A model generated the notes under the pieces. The model was not told the DNA's origin, searched no databases, and was given only the letters and a program-made list of their open reading frames with translations. This document shows, in pieces, positions 4,383 to 31,410 of a DNA stretch of 39,813 nt. A program made the position numbers and the translations under genes. Source of the stretch: Omnitrophica bacterium RIFOXYB12_FULL_50_7 (GTDB lineage Bacteria > Omnitrophota > Omnitrophia > Omnitrophales > Aquincolibacteriaceae); the NCBI GenBank assembly GCA_001804345.1, contig MHFU01000026.1:1-39813 (forward strand), read 5' to 3'. Positions within the stretch are counted from its first letter, which is position 1, and each line of letters begins with the position of its first letter.

Positions 4383-5528
4383 ATGAAAAAAGAACCCTCG
4401 AGCGCGCCCAAACTGATCAAGGGACTGGAAGGGGTCGTGGCTGCCCAGACATCCTTAAGCGATGTGGACGGTGAGAATGGCCGGCTTCTTTATCGCGGTA
4501 TTCCGATTGGTGAATTGGTCGAGAAGTCTCACTTTGAGGAAGTGACATATCATCTCTGGTATGCGAAACTTCCCAACGCTGAGGAGCTCAGAATTTTCAA
4601 GGAGACTTTGAAAGCGCAAAGGACTTTATCTGAGCGTGCGCTAGAGGTCTTGAGGTTTATTCCCACCACCACACATCCCATGAGCGCTCTTCGAACCATG
4701 TGTTCGCTCATGGGGAGCCTGGACCCACGGGCGCATATCGTGAACCCCGAAGAATCCCTGCGCAAAGCCTATCATCTGACGGGTGTTTTTCCGACCATTA
4801 TCGCGGCTTTTTACAGACTTCGTGAAGACAAGGAGCCTATCCAGCCCGACATGAGCCTTTCCCACGCGGCCAACTTCCTCTATATGATGAGCGGCAAGAA
4901 ACCAACACAGGAAATGGAGAAGGCGCTTGATGCGTATCTGATCCTTTTGGCGGATCACGGGCTCAATGCTTCGACTTTTGCGGCGCGTGTGACGACCGGG
5001 ACGCTTTCGAACCTTTATTCGGCGGTCACTTCCGCGGTCGGGACCTTAGCCGGAGAACTCCATGGAGCGGCGAACCAGTATGCGATGGAGATGATCCTTG
5101 AAATTGGAGCGCCCGCGAACGCCATCCCGTATGTGAACAAACTTTTGGATGAGAAAAAGAAAGTCATGGGTTTCGGGCACCGGATCTATAAGACCCGCGA
5201 TCCGCGCGCCGAGGCATTCCGTCAAATCGCCCACGACCTGTGCGTCAAAGCCGGGAAAACGGAATGGATGGAGATCGCCGCACAAGTCGAGAAAGTCATG
5301 ATGGATCGGAAAAAGATCCCCTGCAACGTGGACTTTTTCTCGGCTCCGGTGCTTTACGTGCTCGGGTTCCCGCCGGATTTTTTTACGACTGTTTTTGCGG
5401 CAAGTCGTGTTGCCGGTTGGAGCGGACATATCATTGAGCAGCAACTGGACAATCGCCTTGTCCGCCCGCTCGCGGAATACATCGGTCCGGCGGAGCAGTA
5501 TTACATCCCGCACGAAGACCGGAAGTGA
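4383..5528 (+). CDS. gltA: Citrate synthase
   Basis: 381 aa. Hallmark GFGHRIYKTRDPRA plus LLADHGLNASTF and catalytic-region conservation. Confidence 0.93.
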   Translation: MKKEPSSAPKLIKGLEGVVAAQTSLSDVDGENGRLLYRGIPIGELVEKSHFEEVTYHLWYAKLPNAEELRIFKETLKAQRTLSERALEVLRFIPTTTHPMSALRTMCSLMGSLDPRAHIVNPEESLRKAYHLTGVFPTIIAAFYRLREDKEPIQPDMSLSHAANFLYMMSGKKPTQEMEKALDAYLILLADHGLNASTFAARVTTGTLSNLYSAVTSAVGTLAGELHGAANQYAMEMILEIGAPANAIPYVNKLLDEKKKVMGFGHRIYKTRDPRAEAFRQIAHDLCVKAGKTEWMEIAAQVEKVMMDRKKIPCNVDFFSAPVLYVLGFPPDFFTTVFAASRVAGWSGHIIEQQLDNRLVRPLAEYIGPAEQYYIPHEDRK

Positions 5529-5532
5529 GTTG

Positions 5533-5582
5533 GAAGGGGAAAGGCTGAATTATTTTATAATTCCGCCTGTCCCCTTTATTTT
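5533..5582 (+). terminator. Hairpin of the GGGGACAGGC family followed by a U-rich tail; likely gltA terminator
   Basis: AAGGGGAAAGGC (5534-5545) pairs with GCCTGTCCCCTT (5565-5576). The loop holds an inner stem GAATTAT/ATAATTC. TTTATTTT follows. Confidence 0.6.
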
Positions 5583-16237: not shown

Positions 16238-16316
16238 TTAGGGCATAGGGTTTAGGGTATAGAAAAGTTTCTTGTTTTGAAACAGGTTTTTCTATCCCCT
16301 ATGGCCTATCCCCTAA
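16238..16316 (+). repeat. Long imperfect hairpin (TAGGG / CCCTA words) between pstB2 and phoU
   Basis: 16238-16266 pairs with 16288-16316 in runs of 6, 5, 5 and 8 bp. Apical stem CTTGTT/AACAGG. The phoU SD AGGAGG (16322-16327) follows immediately. Confidence 0.6.
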
Positions 16317-20927: not shown

Positions 20928-20966
20928 TTGGAGGACAGGCATTAAGTGATGGTCTGTCCCTTAAGA
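20928..20966 (-). repeat. Intercistronic hairpin, GGACAGGC family member
   Basis: GGACAG (20933-20938) pairs with CTGTCC (20954-20959); flanking CTT/AAG also pair. Lies between the ino1 stop and the CDP-alcohol transferase start. Confidence 0.5.
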
Positions 20967-22773: not shown

Positions 22774-22794
22774 ACCAAAAACCGGGGACCGGCT

Positions 22795-22878
22795 AACGGG
22801 GAACGCTGAACGTCTGCCTGTCGGTAGGAAGATAAAAACTCTTCGTTTCCCGTTCCCCGTTTCCCGAGGGGTTTTTTT
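22795..22878 (+). terminator. GGGGAACG-family long hairpin followed by T7; likely terminator
   Basis: AACGGGGAACGCTGAACG (22795-22812) pairs with CGTTTCCCGTTCCCCGTT (22844-22861): 11 bp perfect, 2 mismatches, 1 G-U wobble, then 4 bp. TTTTTTT at 22872-22878. Confidence 0.65.
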
Positions 22879-22923: not shown

Positions 22924-24258
22924 ATGAACGACTCTCGTGGTTCCAGCAATTTAACAAAGCAGCTCAACTTTCAGCCGTTTAAGGCCTGGCGCTATAACGC
23001 CGAGCGCGTCAAAATTTCTAAAGTCCTGGCGCCGCCCTATGATGTGATCTCTCCGGAGAAGCAACAGAAGCTTTATGAGAATTCACCGTTTAATAGCATC
23101 CGTCTTATCCTGAATAAAAAAGATCCCGCGGATACAGACCAGAACAACGCCTACACACGAGCTCGCGACACATTCCAGGAGTGGCAGAAGCAAGGCGTTC
23201 TGATGCAAGACCCGGAGCCCTGTTTTTATGTGTACCGGCAGACCTTCAAAGATCCCGTAACTCAATCTACAAAAAACCGGTTCGCGCTGCTTGGCCGTGT
23301 CCAGCTTGAGCCGTTCGAAAAAGGTATTATCGTTCCTCATGAGAAGACGCTTCGCGGCCCCAAAGAGGATCGTATGAGACTTCTCCGGACCGTGCGGACA
23401 AATTTCTCTCCCGTGTTCGGTCTTTATAAGGACAAAGGGTTCGAGATCCGGAGCATTATTCAGGATCCCATGAATTCCCGTCCCGCATTCGAGGCTGAGG
23501 ATGATGACAGGATCGTGCACACGCTTTGGGCGATCGAGGATCCGGACATTCTCGCCAGGCTCCACAAGGCCTTGCAGTCCAAGAAAGTCTATATTGCGGA
23601 CGGACATCACCGTTATGAGACCGCGCTGGAATATGCCAGACAGCAAAGAGAAGAACAGCACTCGTCAGACCTTGTGCTCTTTCCTTTCGATTACATGTAC
23701 ATGGCGCTCGTGAGTTTTGATGACCCGGGGTTCATCGTTCTGCCGACGCACCGGATTGTGACCAAGCTTGGCATGAGCGGCGGTGAGGCCATTCGCAAGC
23801 TTGGAGAATATTTCAAAGTGGAAGAAGTCTTGTTTGCCCAATTAAAAGAGATGACGGCTTCTTACGATCAGGAAGGAAGGATCTTCGGGATGGTTCTCGA
23901 GGAAGGGTGTTTTCTTCTGACGATGATCGACAAAGAGAAGGCGAAAAAGCGGATGATCCAGGACAAACCCGACATTTGGTACGACTTGAATGTGAACGTA
24001 CTTGCGCATCTGATTTTTGCTGAACTGCTCGGGCTTACGGAAGATCGATGGGAAGCGGTTTTGAAGTTCGAACACACGGTTGACGGAGCCGTAGCCCCGC
24101 TCCAAAAGGGCGAGGCGCAGGCTGTTTTTCTCCTGCAGCCCCCCAAGGTTGAAATGCTCGAAAAGATGGGCGCTGTCAATGAGCGCATGCCTCAGAAGTC
24201 GACCTATTTCTATCCCAAGCTCGCTACCGGGCTTGTTTTTTATTCGCATAAAGAATAA
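22924..24258 (+). CDS. DUF1015 domain-containing protein
   Basis: N-terminal FKAWRYN...VLAPPYDVIS and internal IADGHHRYETAL are DUF1015 hallmarks. Confidence 0.85.
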   Translation: MNDSRGSSNLTKQLNFQPFKAWRYNAERVKISKVLAPPYDVISPEKQQKLYENSPFNSIRLILNKKDPADTDQNNAYTRARDTFQEWQKQGVLMQDPEPCFYVYRQTFKDPVTQSTKNRFALLGRVQLEPFEKGIIVPHEKTLRGPKEDRMRLLRTVRTNFSPVFGLYKDKGFEIRSIIQDPMNSRPAFEAEDDDRIVHTLWAIEDPDILARLHKALQSKKVYIADGHHRYETALEYARQQREEQHSSDLVLFPFDYMYMALVSFDDPGFIVLPTHRIVTKLGMSGGEAIRKLGEYFKVEEVLFAQLKEMTASYDQEGRIFGMVLEEGCFLLTMIDKEKAKKRMIQDKPDIWYDLNVNVLAHLIFAELLGLTEDRWEAVLKFEHTVDGAVAPLQKGEAQAVFLLQPPKVEMLEKMGAVNERMPQKSTYFYPKLATGLVFYSHKE

Positions 24259-24266
24259 CGTTTACA

Positions 24267-24303
24267 AAAGGGGACAAGCAATCCCTCCAAGCCTGTCCCC
24301 TTT
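24267..24303 (+). terminator. GGGGACAGGC-family hairpin after the DUF1015 gene
   Basis: AAAGGGGACA (24267-24276) pairs perfectly with TGTCCCCTTT (24294-24303), and GC/GC extends the stem. 11-nt loop. A TTTCTCC tail follows. Confidence 0.6.
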
Positions 24304-24323: not shown

Positions 24324-25721
24324 ATGCGTTCGTATCTCGAAACCTTCCATTCCTCCAAAACTCCCTGGGAGGTTTTTCAAGCAGTCCACGCAAGCTCCCC
24401 GGCTTGTTTTTTCCTGGATTCCCCCCAGTACGCTCCCCCGGATCAAGTTTACTCTTACATTGGGATGGATCCTGAGATAGAAGTTTCTCTTGAGAAGGGC
24501 CGGTTGACCATTTCCGGTGAAGAGAAGGGGAATTATCCCGCTGCCCAACTTTTCCCGCAGTTACGCCGGCTTTTGAAACAAAAAGGGGACAGGCATCTTT
24601 TAAAGAACAAAAGGAGCCAGTCCCAAGCTCCATTCTTTACTGGGGGGCTTGTCGGATATCTTGGGTATGAAACGGCGTCTCTTTGCGACAAAGTAAGTTT
24701 CCGTCCTAAAAAAGAACTTGGAATCCTGGAGGCGTACTTCGGTCTTTTCCGAAATGTGATCGTTTATGACCATAAAGAGCGGATTTATTACTTAGCAATA
24801 AATCCGCGGGACTCGTCCCTCGGGACTCGAGACTCGCAAAAACTAAAATCCTGTTTCGAAAAGTCCATGAAAGCAGAGCCACGTTTCCATCTTAAAAAGA
24901 TTGAGCCGGAAATATCGCGCGGGCATTTTGAAAAAATAGTAAGACGCGCGAAGGAATATATCGCAGCCGGAGATATCTACCAGGCAAATCTGTCCCAGCG
25001 GTTCAATTTCGGATTCCGGGGCTCCGCGCTTGCGCTTTACGACAGGCTCCGCTCAATTAACCCCTCTCCGTTCTCTTCTTTTTTCAAGATCCGGGACCTT
25101 CAGCTCGTGAGCTCATCTCCAGAACGGTTGATCCGTAAGATCGGGAATCTTTGTGAAACGCGGCCGATTGCAGGTACCTGCCCTGCGTATGGGCCTGAGA
25201 AAAAACTTCAGGAGTGGAAGAAAAAGCTTCTCCAGAATCCCAAGGAACGCGCGGAGCACCTCATGCTGGTAGACCTTGAGCGGAACGATCTCGGGCGGGT
25301 TTGTGATTTCCGCTCGGTCAAGGTCGACGAATTCATGACGCTTGAAAAATATTCTTATGTGGTTCACATTGTTTCCAAGATCGTGGGGCGGCTTAAAAAA
25401 GGGAAAGATTGTTTTGACCTGATCAAGGCAATGTTCCCGGGCGGGACGATTACGGGGTGTCCCAAGATCCGTTGTATGGAGATCATTGATGAGCTCGAGC
25501 CTGTGCGGCGCGGTATTTATACCGGTTCCCTTGGCTACATCGATTTGCGCGGTGATATGGACTTGAACATCGTGATCCGGACAATCGTTTTGAAGAACGG
25601 AAGGGGACATCTTCAGGTGGGCGCGGGGATTGTGTATGATTCGGATCCTAAAAAAGAGTATGAAGAGACATTGCATAAGGCTGAGGCGTTGATGAGAGCG
25701 TTAACAGAAGCGTCAGCATGA
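24324..25721 (+). CDS. pabB: Aminodeoxychorismate synthase component I (chorismate-binding TrpE/PabB family)
   Basis: Chorismate-binding motifs FFTGGLVGYLGYE, SSSPERL, FPGGTITGCPKIRCMEII and GIYTGSLGY. The neighbouring class-IV lyase gene favours PabB over TrpE. Confidence 0.8.
   Translation: MRSYLETFHSSKTPWEVFQAVHASSPACFFLDSPQYAPPDQVYSYIGMDPEIEVSLEKGRLTISGEEKGNYPAAQLFPQLRRLLKQKGDRHLLKNKRSQSQAPFFTGGLVGYLGYETASLCDKVSFRPKKELGILEAYFGLFRNVIVYDHKERIYYLAINPRDSSLGTRDSQKLKSCFEKSMKAEPRFHLKKIEPEISRGHFEKIVRRAKEYIAAGDIYQANLSQRFNFGFRGSALALYDRLRSINPSPFSSFFKIRDLQLVSSSPERLIRKIGNLCETRPIAGTCPAYGPEKKLQEWKKKLLQNPKERAEHLMLVDLERNDLGRVCDFRSVKVDEFMTLEKYSYVVHIVSKIVGRLKKGKDCFDLIKAMFPGGTITGCPKIRCMEIIDELEPVRRGIYTGSLGYIDLRGDMDLNIVIRTIVLKNGRGHLQVGAGIVYDSDPKKEYEETLHKAEALMRALTEASA
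24581..24626 (+). repeat. Decayed GGGGACAGGC hairpin copy inside pabB
   Basis: GGGACAGGC (24586-24594) pairs with GCCAGTCCC (24616-24624) with 1 mismatch. It is read in the same frame (K-G-D-R) as the folC copy. Confidence 0.55.
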
Positions 25722-25787: not shown

Positions 25788-26675
25788 ATGAGTTATGCAA
25801 TTTATCAGAACGGTAAAAAAGTTAGCGGGGAACTTCCGTTCGATCTTGTGCGAACGGAGGCCATCGGCATTTTCGAAAGTATGCGCGCCTATCGCGGGCA
25901 GATTCTTCATGAAGAGGAGCATCTCTCCAGGTTTTTGGAGTCGGCGAAGACCGTGGGATACAAACCTTTCCCAAAATTGGCGAGGCTCCAGTGGGAGCTA
26001 AAGTTAGCGCTCAGGGATTTTGGTGAAAAAGAATGTTTTGTCCGCTTGACCTTGTGGGAAGGCCATTCCTTTTTGATCCTGGGTTCCCGGGAACATTCGA
26101 AAGAGCTTTATGAGAAGGGCGTGGTGCTTAAAACGGCCTCTTTTCCTCGCGGGGGACCGAACACTTTCCCCTGGCAAGTTAAAGCTTCAGCCTACCAGCA
26201 GGCGATATTGGCCAGCACGGAGCCCCATCCGGACAAGATCTATGAGTGGGTGTTTCTGGATCCGAGAGGATTTCTCACCGAAACACGCGTCGGAAATTTT
26301 TTTATCGTGAAATGCCCCTGTCCACACCGGGTGTGTCACCCTGGACACACCCGGTGTGGACAGGGTGAGGAACCAACGCTACTGACGCCGCCGGAGCACC
26401 TAATCTTGAATGGAGTGACCCGGAGGTTTGTGATAAAATGCGCCTCCGAAATCGGGATCAAGGTTCGAGAAACCCCGTTGATCCGGCATGAATTTTTCAA
26501 CGCGGATGAAGCTTTTCTTTGCAATACTTCCTGGGAAATCCTGCCGGTCCGTGAACTGGATGGTCGCTTTATCGGTGCGGGAAAACCCGGTCCCATTACT
26601 TTAAAACTGCACCGCTATTTTAAAAGGAGGGTTCAACAAGATGTCACGTCACACCGTTCGTCGCGCGCTTATTAG
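25788..26675 (+). CDS. pabC: Class IV aminotransferase-fold protein, aminodeoxychorismate lyase-like
   Basis: Family blocks FESMRAY, GNFFIVK, LNGVTRR and ADEAFLCNTSWEILPV. Adjacent to pabB. ATG 25788 is preferred over GTG 25770. Carries a 17-codon palindromic insert. Confidence 0.75.
   Translation: MSYAIYQNGKKVSGELPFDLVRTEAIGIFESMRAYRGQILHEEEHLSRFLESAKTVGYKPFPKLARLQWELKLALRDFGEKECFVRLTLWEGHSFLILGSREHSKELYEKGVVLKTASFPRGGPNTFPWQVKASAYQQAILASTEPHPDKIYEWVFLDPRGFLTETRVGNFFIVKCPCPHRVCHPGHTRCGQGEEPTLLTPPEHLILNGVTRRFVIKCASEIGIKVRETPLIRHEFFNADEAFLCNTSWEILPVRELDGRFIGAGKPGPITLKLHRYFKRRVQQDVTSHRSSRAY
26316..26365. repeat. Perfect 22-bp-arm inverted repeat (6-nt spacer) inside pabC
   Basis: CCCTGTCCACACCGGGTGTGTC (26316-26337), spacer ACCCTG, GACACACCCGGTGTGGACAGGG (26344-26365). 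No mismatches. Confidence 0.92.
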
Positions 26676-28218: not shown

Positions 28219-28241
28219 AAGGCGTGGAACGGGTAGCGGCA

Positions 28242-28280
28242 AACGGGGAACGATTCGTTAACCGTTCAGCGTTCCCCGTT
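28242..28280 (+). repeat. GGGGAACG-family hairpin between purH and folC
   Basis: AACGGGGAACG (28242-28252) pairs perfectly with CGTTCCCCGTT (28270-28280). 28263-28280 is the exact reverse complement of 22795-22812. Confidence 0.7.
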
Positions 28281-28290
28281 CCCCGAGCCC

Positions 28291-29601
28291 ATGAACTACT
28301 CCCAAGCCCTTCGCTATTTGAATTCTTTTACCAATCTCGAAAAGCTCGCCCAGTGGCCCCAAAACTCCTTCTTCAATCTTAAACGGATGGAGCATTTGCT
28401 TAAAGCGGCAGGTCATTTGGAGAAGAGTTTTTTCCCCATCTTGATCGCGGGGACCACAGGAAAAGGGTCGACAGGCTTTTTTCTCGAATCTATTCTGAAG
28501 GCCAATGGCATCCGGACGGGTTACTATCACTCCCCGCACGTCGAAGATCCGCGCGAGAGGATCCGGGTTCAGGGAGACATGGTTTCCAAAAGACTTTGGG
28601 CCGAAGGGCTTTCCGCGACGCAAAAACTTCTCCGCCAAAAACCTCTTCCGAAAGCATGGGGCGTTCTGACCTATTTCGAGACCCTGACATTTCTGGCCAT
28701 TTGGATTTTTGTGAAAAGGGGCATCAAAGTCGGCATTTTTGAGATCGGGCTTGGCGGCCGGCTTGATGCGACCAATGTCCTGAAAGCGCCGCTTGTGATC
28801 CTTACGCCCATTCATCTCGACCACGAAGCATTCTTGGGCAACACTATTTCAAAAATAGCTGCTGAAAAAGCCGCGATCATCAAGACGCGAGGACACGCCG
28901 TGATCGGAAAACAATGCCCGGAAGCGCTTCGGGTGATCTGCGGTGCCGTGAAAAGGAATAAGGGAATTTTATGGAAGGCGAAGCCTATCGTCGGGATTTC
29001 GCTCGGGCTTGCCGGGGATTTTCAAAAGAGGAATGCCGGTGTTGTGCTGAAAGCCGCCGAGATCTTGCGGAAGTATTTTAATTTTTCAATAACACCTCAA
29101 CGATCGAAGGAAGGATTGCGATCCCGGAACTGGAAAGGACGCATGGAAAGTTTTTACCGAGGTGGCCGGCGATTTATCCTGGACGGTGCGCATAATCCAA
29201 TCTCGACAACAGAGCTGGTCCGGTCTTTGCGGAAAATGGAACCGGCCGCTCGCAAAGGGGACAGACCCCTTAAAAATTTAGGGGGTCTGTCCCCTTCATG
29301 GCTGGTGTTTGGCGCGATGAATGATAAGAACAGCCGGGAGATGCTCCGGGTGCTGAGCGGATTTTTTTCAAAAATAATCCTGACCGGCATTACGGGAAAT
29401 CGTGCCAAGCCGGTGGCGATGCTTATCGAAGAGGCGAAAGGGCTTTTCAAATGCGTTCTTACGGCCCAGAATGTTGGAGAATCGTTGGAGTTGGCGGGGA
29501 GAGCATCAAACTCCGGAGCTACTATTACGGTGACAGGGTCGTTTTATTTAGTCGGTGAGGCAAGAAAAATCTTAAAAAACCCGGGGAACGGGAAACGGTG
29601 A
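28291..29601 (+). CDS. folC: Folylpolyglutamate synthase / dihydrofolate synthase FolC
   Basis: Mur-ligase P-loop IAGTTGKGST, then EIGLGGRLDATN, LDHEAFLGNT, and LDGAHNP in the C-terminal domain. Confidence 0.88.
   Translation: MNYSQALRYLNSFTNLEKLAQWPQNSFFNLKRMEHLLKAAGHLEKSFFPILIAGTTGKGSTGFFLESILKANGIRTGYYHSPHVEDPRERIRVQGDMVSKRLWAEGLSATQKLLRQKPLPKAWGVLTYFETLTFLAIWIFVKRGIKVGIFEIGLGGRLDATNVLKAPLVILTPIHLDHEAFLGNTISKIAAEKAAIIKTRGHAVIGKQCPEALRVICGAVKRNKGILWKAKPIVGISLGLAGDFQKRNAGVVLKAAEILRKYFNFSITPQRSKEGLRSRNWKGRMESFYRGGRRFILDGAHNPISTTELVRSLRKMEPAARKGDRPLKNLGGLSPSWLVFGAMNDKNSREMLRVLSGFFSKIILTGITGNRAKPVAMLIEEAKGLFKCVLTAQNVGESLELAGRASNSGATITVTGSFYLVGEARKILKNPGNGKR
29255..29296. repeat. Perfect 15-bp-arm inverted repeat inside folC (GGGGACAG family)
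   Basis: AAGGGGACAGACCCC (29255-29269), spacer TTAAAAATTTAG, GGGGTCTGTCCCCTT (29282-29296). 42 nt, which is 14 codons. Confidence 0.9.
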
Positions 29602-29654
29602 ACGGGGAACGGAAAAACGGCTTGCGTTCGGCGTTCCCCTTTCCTCGTTACCCA
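29581..29654 (+). repeat. GGGGAACG-family hairpin spanning the folC stop codon
   Basis: Left arm CCGGGGAACGGGAAACGGTGAACGGGGAACGG contains the folC TGA (29599-29601). GGGGAACG (29604-29611) pairs with CGTTCCCC (29632-29639). Confidence 0.6.
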
Positions 29655-29664
29655 ATCTTTTAAT

Positions 29665-31056: not shown

Positions 31057-31410
31057 TTTTAAAAAAATTCCTAAAAATATTTTTTAATTGCGTTGACATC
31101 AGAAGTTTCTTTGTTATCCTTGTCAGCGATTTATTTTTAATGGTTAACAAGGATGGCCCCAATTTCAGATACTCTGAAATTGATAAGAGGTGGGACTAAA
31201 ATTCCACTCGCTAAACGAATGAGCAAAGGAAATTTTACGCGCGAGTGTTTAGCGAATGGAAATTTTCGAAAAACCAGCTGGATTTTTATAAAACATAACC
31301 GATTCAGAAACTCGTGGTGCGTTTCTTGAATTTAGGAACTCCAAGGTACAAGTCTTAACATCCAAGGCATTCCATAGGTAAAAACGGTTCGTAGAAAAAA
31401 TTCGAATGAG

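Follow-up and report, generated by a model that had tools for sequence, protein, structure and literature searches.

What is a near-perfect palindrome doing inside the coding sequence of folC, and how did it come to be there? The question arises from a contig of about 40 kb belonging to a metagenome-assembled genome of the phylum Omnitrophota (the whole analysed stretch is called the window below, and coordinates are window positions unless another locus is named), in which a long hairpin interrupts folC directly before a conserved block of the protein. Our preferred answer, to which we give a probability of roughly 0.7, is that the hairpin is an intragenic REPIN (repetitive extragenic palindromic, or REP, doublet forming hairpins) that was copied by a REP-associated tyrosine transposase (RAYT) acting in trans, landed in a tolerant, stop-free reading phase and is translated as a disordered loop. 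A REPIN is a non-autonomous selfish element in which a short palindromic REP unit is present twice, in opposite orientations, with a short spacer between. The features concerned are as follows.

28291 to 29601, plus strand: folC, dihydrofolate synthase / folylpolyglutamate synthase (FPGS), the host gene, 436 amino acids, assigned by Pfam Mur_ligase_C and structure matches.
29254 to 29298, plus strand: net insertion of 45 nt, or 15 codons, K322-S336, encoding KGDRPLKNLGGLSPS, delimited by DNA and codon alignment against the empty sites of loci L008 and L327.
29255 to 29296, unstranded: near-perfect 42-nt palindrome AAGGGGACAGACCCC-TTAAAAATTTAG-GGGGTCTGTCCCCTT, read as a REP doublet (REPIN) from its arms and RNA fold.
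29257 to 29269, unstranded: putative REP unit A, GGGG-ACAGA-CCCC, with a 4-bp stem and a 5-nt loop, read from the sequence.
29283 to 29295, unstranded: putative REP unit B, GGGG-TCTGT-CCCC, which is unit A inverted, likewise read from the sequence.

The two arms, at 29255-29269 and 29282-29296, are exact reverse complements over 15 nt, as the original prediction had stated; the spacer, which it had called AT-only, is AT-rich with one G. A repeat finder extends the pairing to 20-nt arms at 95% complementarity with 2 nt between them, so the entire 42 nt form a single near-perfect palindrome. When folded as RNA, positions 29245-29305 reach -39.8 kcal/mol, against -18.2 ± 3.0 for shuffled sequences (z = -7.1; equalled by 0 of 200 shuffles). 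Allowing at most one mismatch, we counted the word AAGGGGACAG 11 times in the window, where 2.43 were expected; 0 of 100 shuffles reached that count. These shuffle statistics exclude a chance origin for the palindrome and for the enrichment of its word. Since the folC sequence is base-for-base identical in six contigs of diverse sample and assembler origin (ENA, JGI, NCBI), it is no assembly artefact. The reading as a REP doublet follows from the arms themselves, because each (GGGG-ACAGA-CCCC) is self-palindromic and the two are inverted; the 13-mer of unit A is found both paired and single in metagenome loci. With respect to the gene, the first nucleotide of the palindrome is the second base of codon K322; it encodes KGDRPLKNLGGLSP ahead of S-W-LVFGAMNDKN, and the reading phase of folC is the only one of the palindrome's three frames that is free of stops.

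Comparison with empty sites allowed us to separate inserted from native sequence. The stretch that spans 23 codons in the window has 8 in loci L008 and L327, and in the DNA alignment the window folC keeps the 8 native codons with 45 nt added. The insertion had been put at 42 nt and 14 codons: that length is correct for the palindrome, whereas the net gain relative to the empty-site orthologues is 45 nt and 15 codons, in frame and before the LVFGAMNDKN block as claimed. At the protein level, most Omnitrophota FolC orthologues follow the baseline SL(R/E)xQK(I/V)RDP|WLVFG, and the window reads SLRKMEPAAR-KGDRPLKNLGGLSPS-WLVFG; Thermotoga FolC (PDB 1o5z) has 14 residues fewer here, in gaps of 4 and 10 residues of a pairwise alignment. 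Most FolC orthologues, close ones included, lack the insert, and the orthologue alignment shows none with a non-palindromic segment of equivalent length.

A second filled site, in L007 (protein P0002), can be set beside the empty site of L327 (P0023) in folC genes that are 91.4% identical in DNA. In L007 the 45-nt element replaces 24 native nt, and the flanks match L327 up to both junctions. Neither this comparison nor that of the window with L008 shows a target-site duplication at the junctions. In a neighbour-joining tree, the sequences that bear the GDRPLK insert (those of the window, P0002 and P0003) lie in different clades, with P0002 sister to the empty P0023. The element of the window and that of L007 differ at 3 of 45 nt, in genes that differ by about 20%, and third codon positions are alike in 13 of 15 codons within the element versus 245 of 408 outside it (Fisher p = 0.056), a marginal excess of conservation that is compatible with recent independent insertion.

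The protein offers a plausible place for such an insert. FolC matches 1o5z with an E-value of 2e-51, and its AlphaFold model (mean predicted local distance difference test score, pLDDT, 87.8) gives TM-scores of 0.75-0.83 to solved FolC/FPGS structures. The insertion directly precedes W337 (codon TGG) of the conserved WLVFGAMNDK strand; the model puts it within a coil (317-335) that joins helix 303-316 to strand 336-340, and pLDDT falls below 50 at residues 324-332. Judged from the model, extra residues would be tolerated in this loop, which follows the first helix of the C-terminal domain and leads into the next strand. Truncated FolC matches were considered as frame-broken alleles and rejected, being contig-end or start-site truncations with normal loops.

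The folC hairpin belongs to a family with 4-5 copies in the 40 kb of the window. Four other members or relatives are listed here.

5534 to 5576, unstranded: intergenic copy AAGGGGAAAGGC...GCCTGTCCCCTT, 6 nt past the stop of the open reading frame (ORF) 4383..5528 and followed by TATTTT.
24267 to 24303, unstranded: intergenic copy AAAGGGGACAAGC...GCCTGTCCCCTTT, 9 nt past the stop of ORF 22924..24258 and upstream of pabB.
24583 to 24624, unstranded: decayed in-frame copy AAGGGGACAGGC...GCCAGTCCC in pabB (ORF 24324..25721), encoding ..KGDRHLLKNKRSQS..
20930 to 20962, unstranded: degenerate relative GGAGGACAGGC...GGTCTGTCCCTT, within a 95-nt window-specific intergenic insert.

The same type of element thus occurs both between genes (5534 and 24267, after stops) and inside them (24583-24624, in frame), as the original prediction had it. 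Its further claim, that hairpins at 5534, 24267 and 24581 share the arm word of folC, needs two corrections: at 5534 and 24267 the word is exact on one arm and has one mismatch on the other, and the third hairpin, indeed a family copy, starts at 24583 and has a decayed 3' arm. By alignment with the syntenic locus L008 (78% identity over the whole locus), these hairpins and several others are window-specific. The copy at 24267..24303 is partly missing from L008, and the region of the pabB copy carries a 37-nt window-specific insert at 24557-24593; here window PabB is 7 residues (KGDRHLL) longer than three orthologues. REP elements normally settle just downstream of genes. Because TATTTT follows the 5534 copy, other members of the family may terminate transcription.

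Further copies are abundant outside the window. A scan for AAGGGGACAG..CTGTCCCCTT, with one genome per species, found arm-core matches in at least 10 phyla by record titles (among the matches listed), and a metagenome scan that fixed all 30 arm bases returned at least 119 stretches with at least 121 hairpins, on contigs ranging from 27% to 71% GC among the matches listed. These 121 hairpins, for which identical 15-nt arms were the selection criterion, differ in spacer and flanks with pairing kept, and A-runs or T-runs often border them. In contigs below 58% GC, most copies lie directly after stop codons and a minority within ORFs (by crude ORF calls); in high-GC contigs many lie in long ORFs, some of which are certainly real. 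By Pfam, in-frame copies are present in real genes for AcrB, a CopA-type ATPase, a carboxyltransferase, HypF, DnaE2 and an ImuB-like protein. Nearly every AAGGGG-NNNN hairpin of the carrier genomes has ACAG, the inner modules of the hairpins recur across genomes, and a sister subfamily, ..GGGGACAGGCTAC / GTAGCCTGTCCCC.., carries GTAG. Short AAGGGGACAG-type matches across genomes, on the other hand, are chance occurrences among terminators, because the hits in viral contigs are mostly short terminators and no more frequent than shuffled-stem controls; forms of at least 40 nt are enriched for the real motif, making up 10 of 32 of its viral matches, as opposed to 2 of 29 in one control and 1 of 16 in the other. 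Rfam at gathering thresholds gave no match in the window and 11 carrier loci, BLAST of the consensus hairpin against PLSDB plasmids gave none, and the arm words are absent from the supplements of Di Nocera 2013. In the full-text literature, the arm words turned up in unrelated eukaryotic papers only, and searches for Omnitrophota with palindromic returned nothing relevant.

Some individual carriers deserve mention. On a high-GC metagenome contig (L293:664-5586), adjacent DnaE2 and ImuB-like genes hold two in-frame GGGGACAGACCCC hairpins each, the DnaE2 copies echoing a published report of REPs in DnaE2. In Olsenella sp. SW781 (L052:4058-4200), GGGGACAG occurs as four tandem 17-mers, GTGCAAAGGGGAC(A/G)GGC, that are mirrored to give a very long composite palindrome; similar tandem half-units are seen in L030 and L088.

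A motif search for RAYT-like ORFs over all compared loci connected the family to a candidate enzyme. It found four, each directly adjoining these hairpins.

L026, 2182 to 2886: RAYT-like gene, with units at 2172 and 2919, one on each side.
L097, ending at 533: RAYT-like gene, with units at 535 and 571.
L307, 355 to 1005: RAYT-like gene, with hairpins at about 303-334 and 949-976.
L316, 1883 to 2575: RAYT-like gene, with a hairpin at about 1841-1879.

All four proteins score above the Pfam Y1_Tnp cut-off; in NCBIfam, against which those of L026, L307 and L316 were scanned, the best match is REP_Tyr_transpos at 70-73 bits, below the cut-off of 80. The proteins are mutually 33-47% identical, and the flanking hairpins share the GGGGACAG/CTGTCCCC core, with identical 15-nt arms in two of the four loci; that of L316 differs from the folC element in the spacer alone. 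In viral and control loci (0.64 Mb) no RAYT-like gene was found. Among contigs that carry an L316 RAYT homologue, many span just about 0.9-2 kb, which may mean that assemblies break at the flanking repeats.

Why the insertion is found at this point of FolC can be approached from the other orthologues. Across 52 FolC orthologues, this single loop accounts for every internal insertion of at least 3 residues (22 of 22). Every inserted loop with DNA examined (6 of 6) contains a hairpin-forming palindrome, and these are of four kinds or more; the three empty loops, namely those of L008 and L327 and the native portion of the window's own, are non-palindromic. The GGGGACAGACCCC element is found in the window and in L007, CCCTCGTACACACCCGGTGTGTACGAGGG in L323, CCCCG(C/T)AGAGACCGGGTCTCT...AGAGACCCGGTCTCT(G/A)CGGGG in L324 and L325, and an imperfect palindrome, GGGACTCG...CGAGTCCC, in L326. 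The FolC loop has thus been hit independently by several different palindromes. The six inserts with DNA are multiples of three without stops, a count subject to ascertainment bias since only full-length protein matches were used. At the protein level, P0011, P0049, P0073 and P0075 have inserts of the form ..RRGNL..R..ARND(E/K).. at the same loop, which look like translations of yet another repeat family.

Events that resemble the one in folC are present in pabB and pabC of the same operon. The pabB copy is described above, and the pabC feature is the following.

26316 to 26365, in pabC (ORF 25788..26675): in-frame palindrome with perfect 22-nt arms, CCCTGTCCACACCGGGTGTGTC / GACACACCCGGTGTGGACAGGG, reading PCPHRVCHPGHTRCGQG.

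It amounts to an additional 42 nt relative to the empty L008, L325 and L327. The same pabC loop holds a different, AGAGACC-type palindrome in L323, L324 and L326, and in L324 one palindrome family is in frame in both pabC and folC. A further 21-nt window-specific in-frame insert in pabB (24803-24823; palindrome GGGAC-TC-GTCCC) adds 7 residues (INPRDSS), and L326 pabB has a 7-residue insert at the matching place.

The window holds further hairpins. A second family, built from GGGGAACG / CGTTCCCC words, occupies three intergenic spacers (29576-29661, 28223-28285 and 22790-22866). Its 86-nt copy after folC replaces the overlap of folC stop and mnmE start seen in L007, L008 and L327 and gives window FolC a new C-terminus (..KNPGNGKR), the stop codon lying inside the repeat. 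Two more long hairpins are intergenic: one at 16238-16316, TTAGGGCATAGGGTTTAGGG..., with 29-nt arms at 83%, and one with 16-nt arms at 31116-31154, inside an 82-nt window-specific insert.

Under the REPIN reading, a Y1 (HUH) tyrosine transposase of the RAYT type, presumably present and active in this genome, would have copied the element in trans as single-stranded DNA. The copy would have landed in folC in the only stop-free reading phase, in the tolerant loop of the C-terminal domain, and would be translated into a disordered 15-residue loop; FolC would presumably retain its activity, and the insert, doing little harm, would persist as probably neutral rather than useful. Several observations weigh against this account. 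Plain cut-and-paste or copy-in predicts no loss of native sequence such as the 24 nt replaced in L007, and the single right-hand junction common to three non-sister lineages would need target specificity or recombinational allele transfer. The element is conserved only marginally more than the rest of folC between the window and L007. No RAYT gene was found in the window or in any compared Omnitrophota locus, and no Omnitrophota names appear among the top 120 matches of a RAYT homologue search; the four RAYTs are apparently from outside the phylum (the record titles name Aquisalimonas for L026 and Halioglobus for L097), and among named homologues the L316 protein is closest to those from Steroidobacteraceae and Alphaproteobacteria. 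Comparison with controls in viral contigs shows the 10-mer hairpin to be no more common there (30 loci versus 29 and 16 for two shuffled-stem motifs), and it is in viral contigs alone that control motifs calibrate how special the arm sequence is across phyla. The folC copy also bears neither GTAG nor CGTC, the tags that most catalogued REPs carry, although these define the two super-families of Di Nocera and not REPs generally.

There are other possible explanations for the source of the palindrome. Local DNA repair could have produced it, either by template switching at a short inverted repeat or by short-patch gene conversion or recombination with a different copy as donor, seeded by microhomology, in a loop that may be prone to such events. 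The replacement of native sequence in L007 without target duplication would be accounted for, as would a junction shared by the non-sister P0002 and P0003, which recombinational allele transfer would give; in addition, the native L327 site ends in ..GTCCGAAACCCC, resembling the element's end ..GTCTGTCCCC. De novo template switching, however, cannot yield arms identical to those on more than 119 unrelated metagenome contigs, and a donor copy would therefore be needed anyway. With the family physically linked to RAYT genes, and with the element simply added to 8 intact native codons in the window lineage, we consider repair in place of transposition unlikely. That the hairpin is an ordinary terminator-like structure, with a stem word alike by chance and no common origin across genomes, is very improbable and already largely refuted. 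The viral-contig result with the two controls, together with the many shorter genome matches that resemble plain terminators, speaks for it, but the word is significantly enriched within the window, the pattern with 30 nt fixed still gives at least 119 metagenome stretches, and the long viral forms exceed both controls. The recurrent inner modules, the near-uniform ACAG of carrier AAGGGG-NNNN hairpins and the RAYT genes directly adjoining hairpins also speak against it, as does the folC copy itself, which is intragenic and lacks a T-run.

The palindrome may alternatively have begun as a repeat and then been kept as an RNA or DNA signal in folC, whether as a pause site, an RNase III site, an attenuator for folC or downstream mnmE, or a means of timing the folding of the C-terminal domain. 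A fold of -39.8 kcal/mol with a perfect 15-bp stem, whereas the pabB copy has decayed, speaks for such a role; so do the mere 3 differences from L007 despite the divergence of the genes, and the recurrence of insertions at one FolC site and one PabC site. Yet the recurrent inserts come from unrelated sequence families, which indicates tolerance of the loop and not a specific signal, and the conservation excess is marginal (p = 0.056) and explained equally well by recent insertion. Since most orthologues, close ones too, do without the insert, and since the hairpin has no T-run after its stem, is not called in full by a terminator scan and matches no Rfam family, we regard a retained signal as quite improbable.

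A REPIN origin might be taken further, in that the FolC and PabC loops may be actively targeted and not just tolerant, with several unrelated REPIN families homing to one DNA site or to each other, and all GGGGACAG REPINs may belong to one family whose core of 10-15 nt is near-invariant and which spread horizontally over ten or more phyla beside RAYTs diverged to 33-47% identity. We hold this combined proposal to be doubtful. REP families are usually described as lineage-specific, and a horizontally spread GGGGACAG family would, if true, challenge the view of REPINs as lineage-bound and vertically inherited. The common arm sequence beside diverged RAYTs provides a handle on how these transposases recognize hairpins. 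Because different palindromes have entered one FolC loop and one PabC loop again and again, each time independently, these loops constitute an unusually clean natural experiment, and together with a filled and an empty site in genes 91% identical in DNA they make target choice, insertion tolerance and the age of REPIN copies directly measurable. Such repeats also change the lengths and termini of proteins and probably break assemblies, and so affect the annotation of metagenome-assembled genomes.

Among known systems, several candidates were set aside. An intrinsic (Rho-independent) terminator was rejected, the folC hairpin being followed by CATGGCTGG with no T-run and the terminator scan making no call on the full hairpin. 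A translational bypass element of the T4 gene 60 or mitochondrial byp type was rejected too, as the flanking codons differ (CGC AAA ... TCA TGG) and the inserts keep frame. From sequence alone, an integron attC site was discarded for want of RYYYAAC/GTTRRRY boxes, and collagen-like coding repeats and CsrA or Shine-Dalgarno sites were considered and dropped. DNA-uptake sequences were dropped because the element is not lineage-specific, and FtsK-orienting polar sequences (KOPS) or similar strand-skewed motifs because they do not form inverted pairs. MITEs (miniature transposable elements bounded by inverted repeats), ERIC, BOX and the enterobacterial RU are, like the folC element, short, non-autonomous and hairpin-forming; compared with MITEs, the folC element has no target-site duplication, is much shorter and is linked to a Y1 (HUH) and not a DDE transposase.

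The REP/REPIN-RAYT systems of Pseudomonas and Enterobacteria (Bertels and Rainey, Nunvar, Ton-Hoang, Di Nocera 2013) come closest. They share with the folC element a palindromic unit arranged as an inverted doublet in a long hairpin, and with its family a multi-copy unit, a variable but pairing spacer, flanks of A/T-runs and a mostly post-gene position; a RAYT gene flanked by hairpins of the same core is also found for the family, in other organisms (L026, L097, L307, L316). Bertels and Rainey likewise describe REPIN spacers and flanks that vary yet stay palindromic (PMC3337134), and occasional intragenic copies, DnaE2 included, are common to both (Di Nocera et al., PMC3733652). The folC doublet, at 42 nt, is far more compact than the 89-bp SBW25 REPIN (PMC3337134), and it differs also in an arm core that, unlike what is usually described for REP families, is common to at least 10 phyla by record titles among the matches listed, beside RAYTs 33-47% identical.

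The other close relatives are the Rickettsia palindromic elements (RPEs), reportedly introduced by Ogata et al. in 2000. Like the folC element, RPEs are selfish palindromes that lie in frame in unrelated housekeeping genes at fold-compatible sites and also occur between genes, and in this respect the folC element works like an RPE. Size and host set the two apart: the folC element is 42-45 nt long, adds 15 residues and resides in Omnitrophota, whereas RPEs, the classic in-frame case, measure about 150 bp (reviewed in PMC10969869), add longer peptides and are known only from Rickettsia and relatives. That short non-autonomous hairpin-forming repeats can create in-frame fusions is established (PMC10969869, PMC2759123). 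In-frame intragenic palindromic repeats are therefore already known; the Omnitrophota folC case, with its well-documented hotspot and the breadth of its arm sequence, extends selfish in-frame palindromes in essential genes from Rickettsia and a few REP-rich bacteria to an uncultured phylum.

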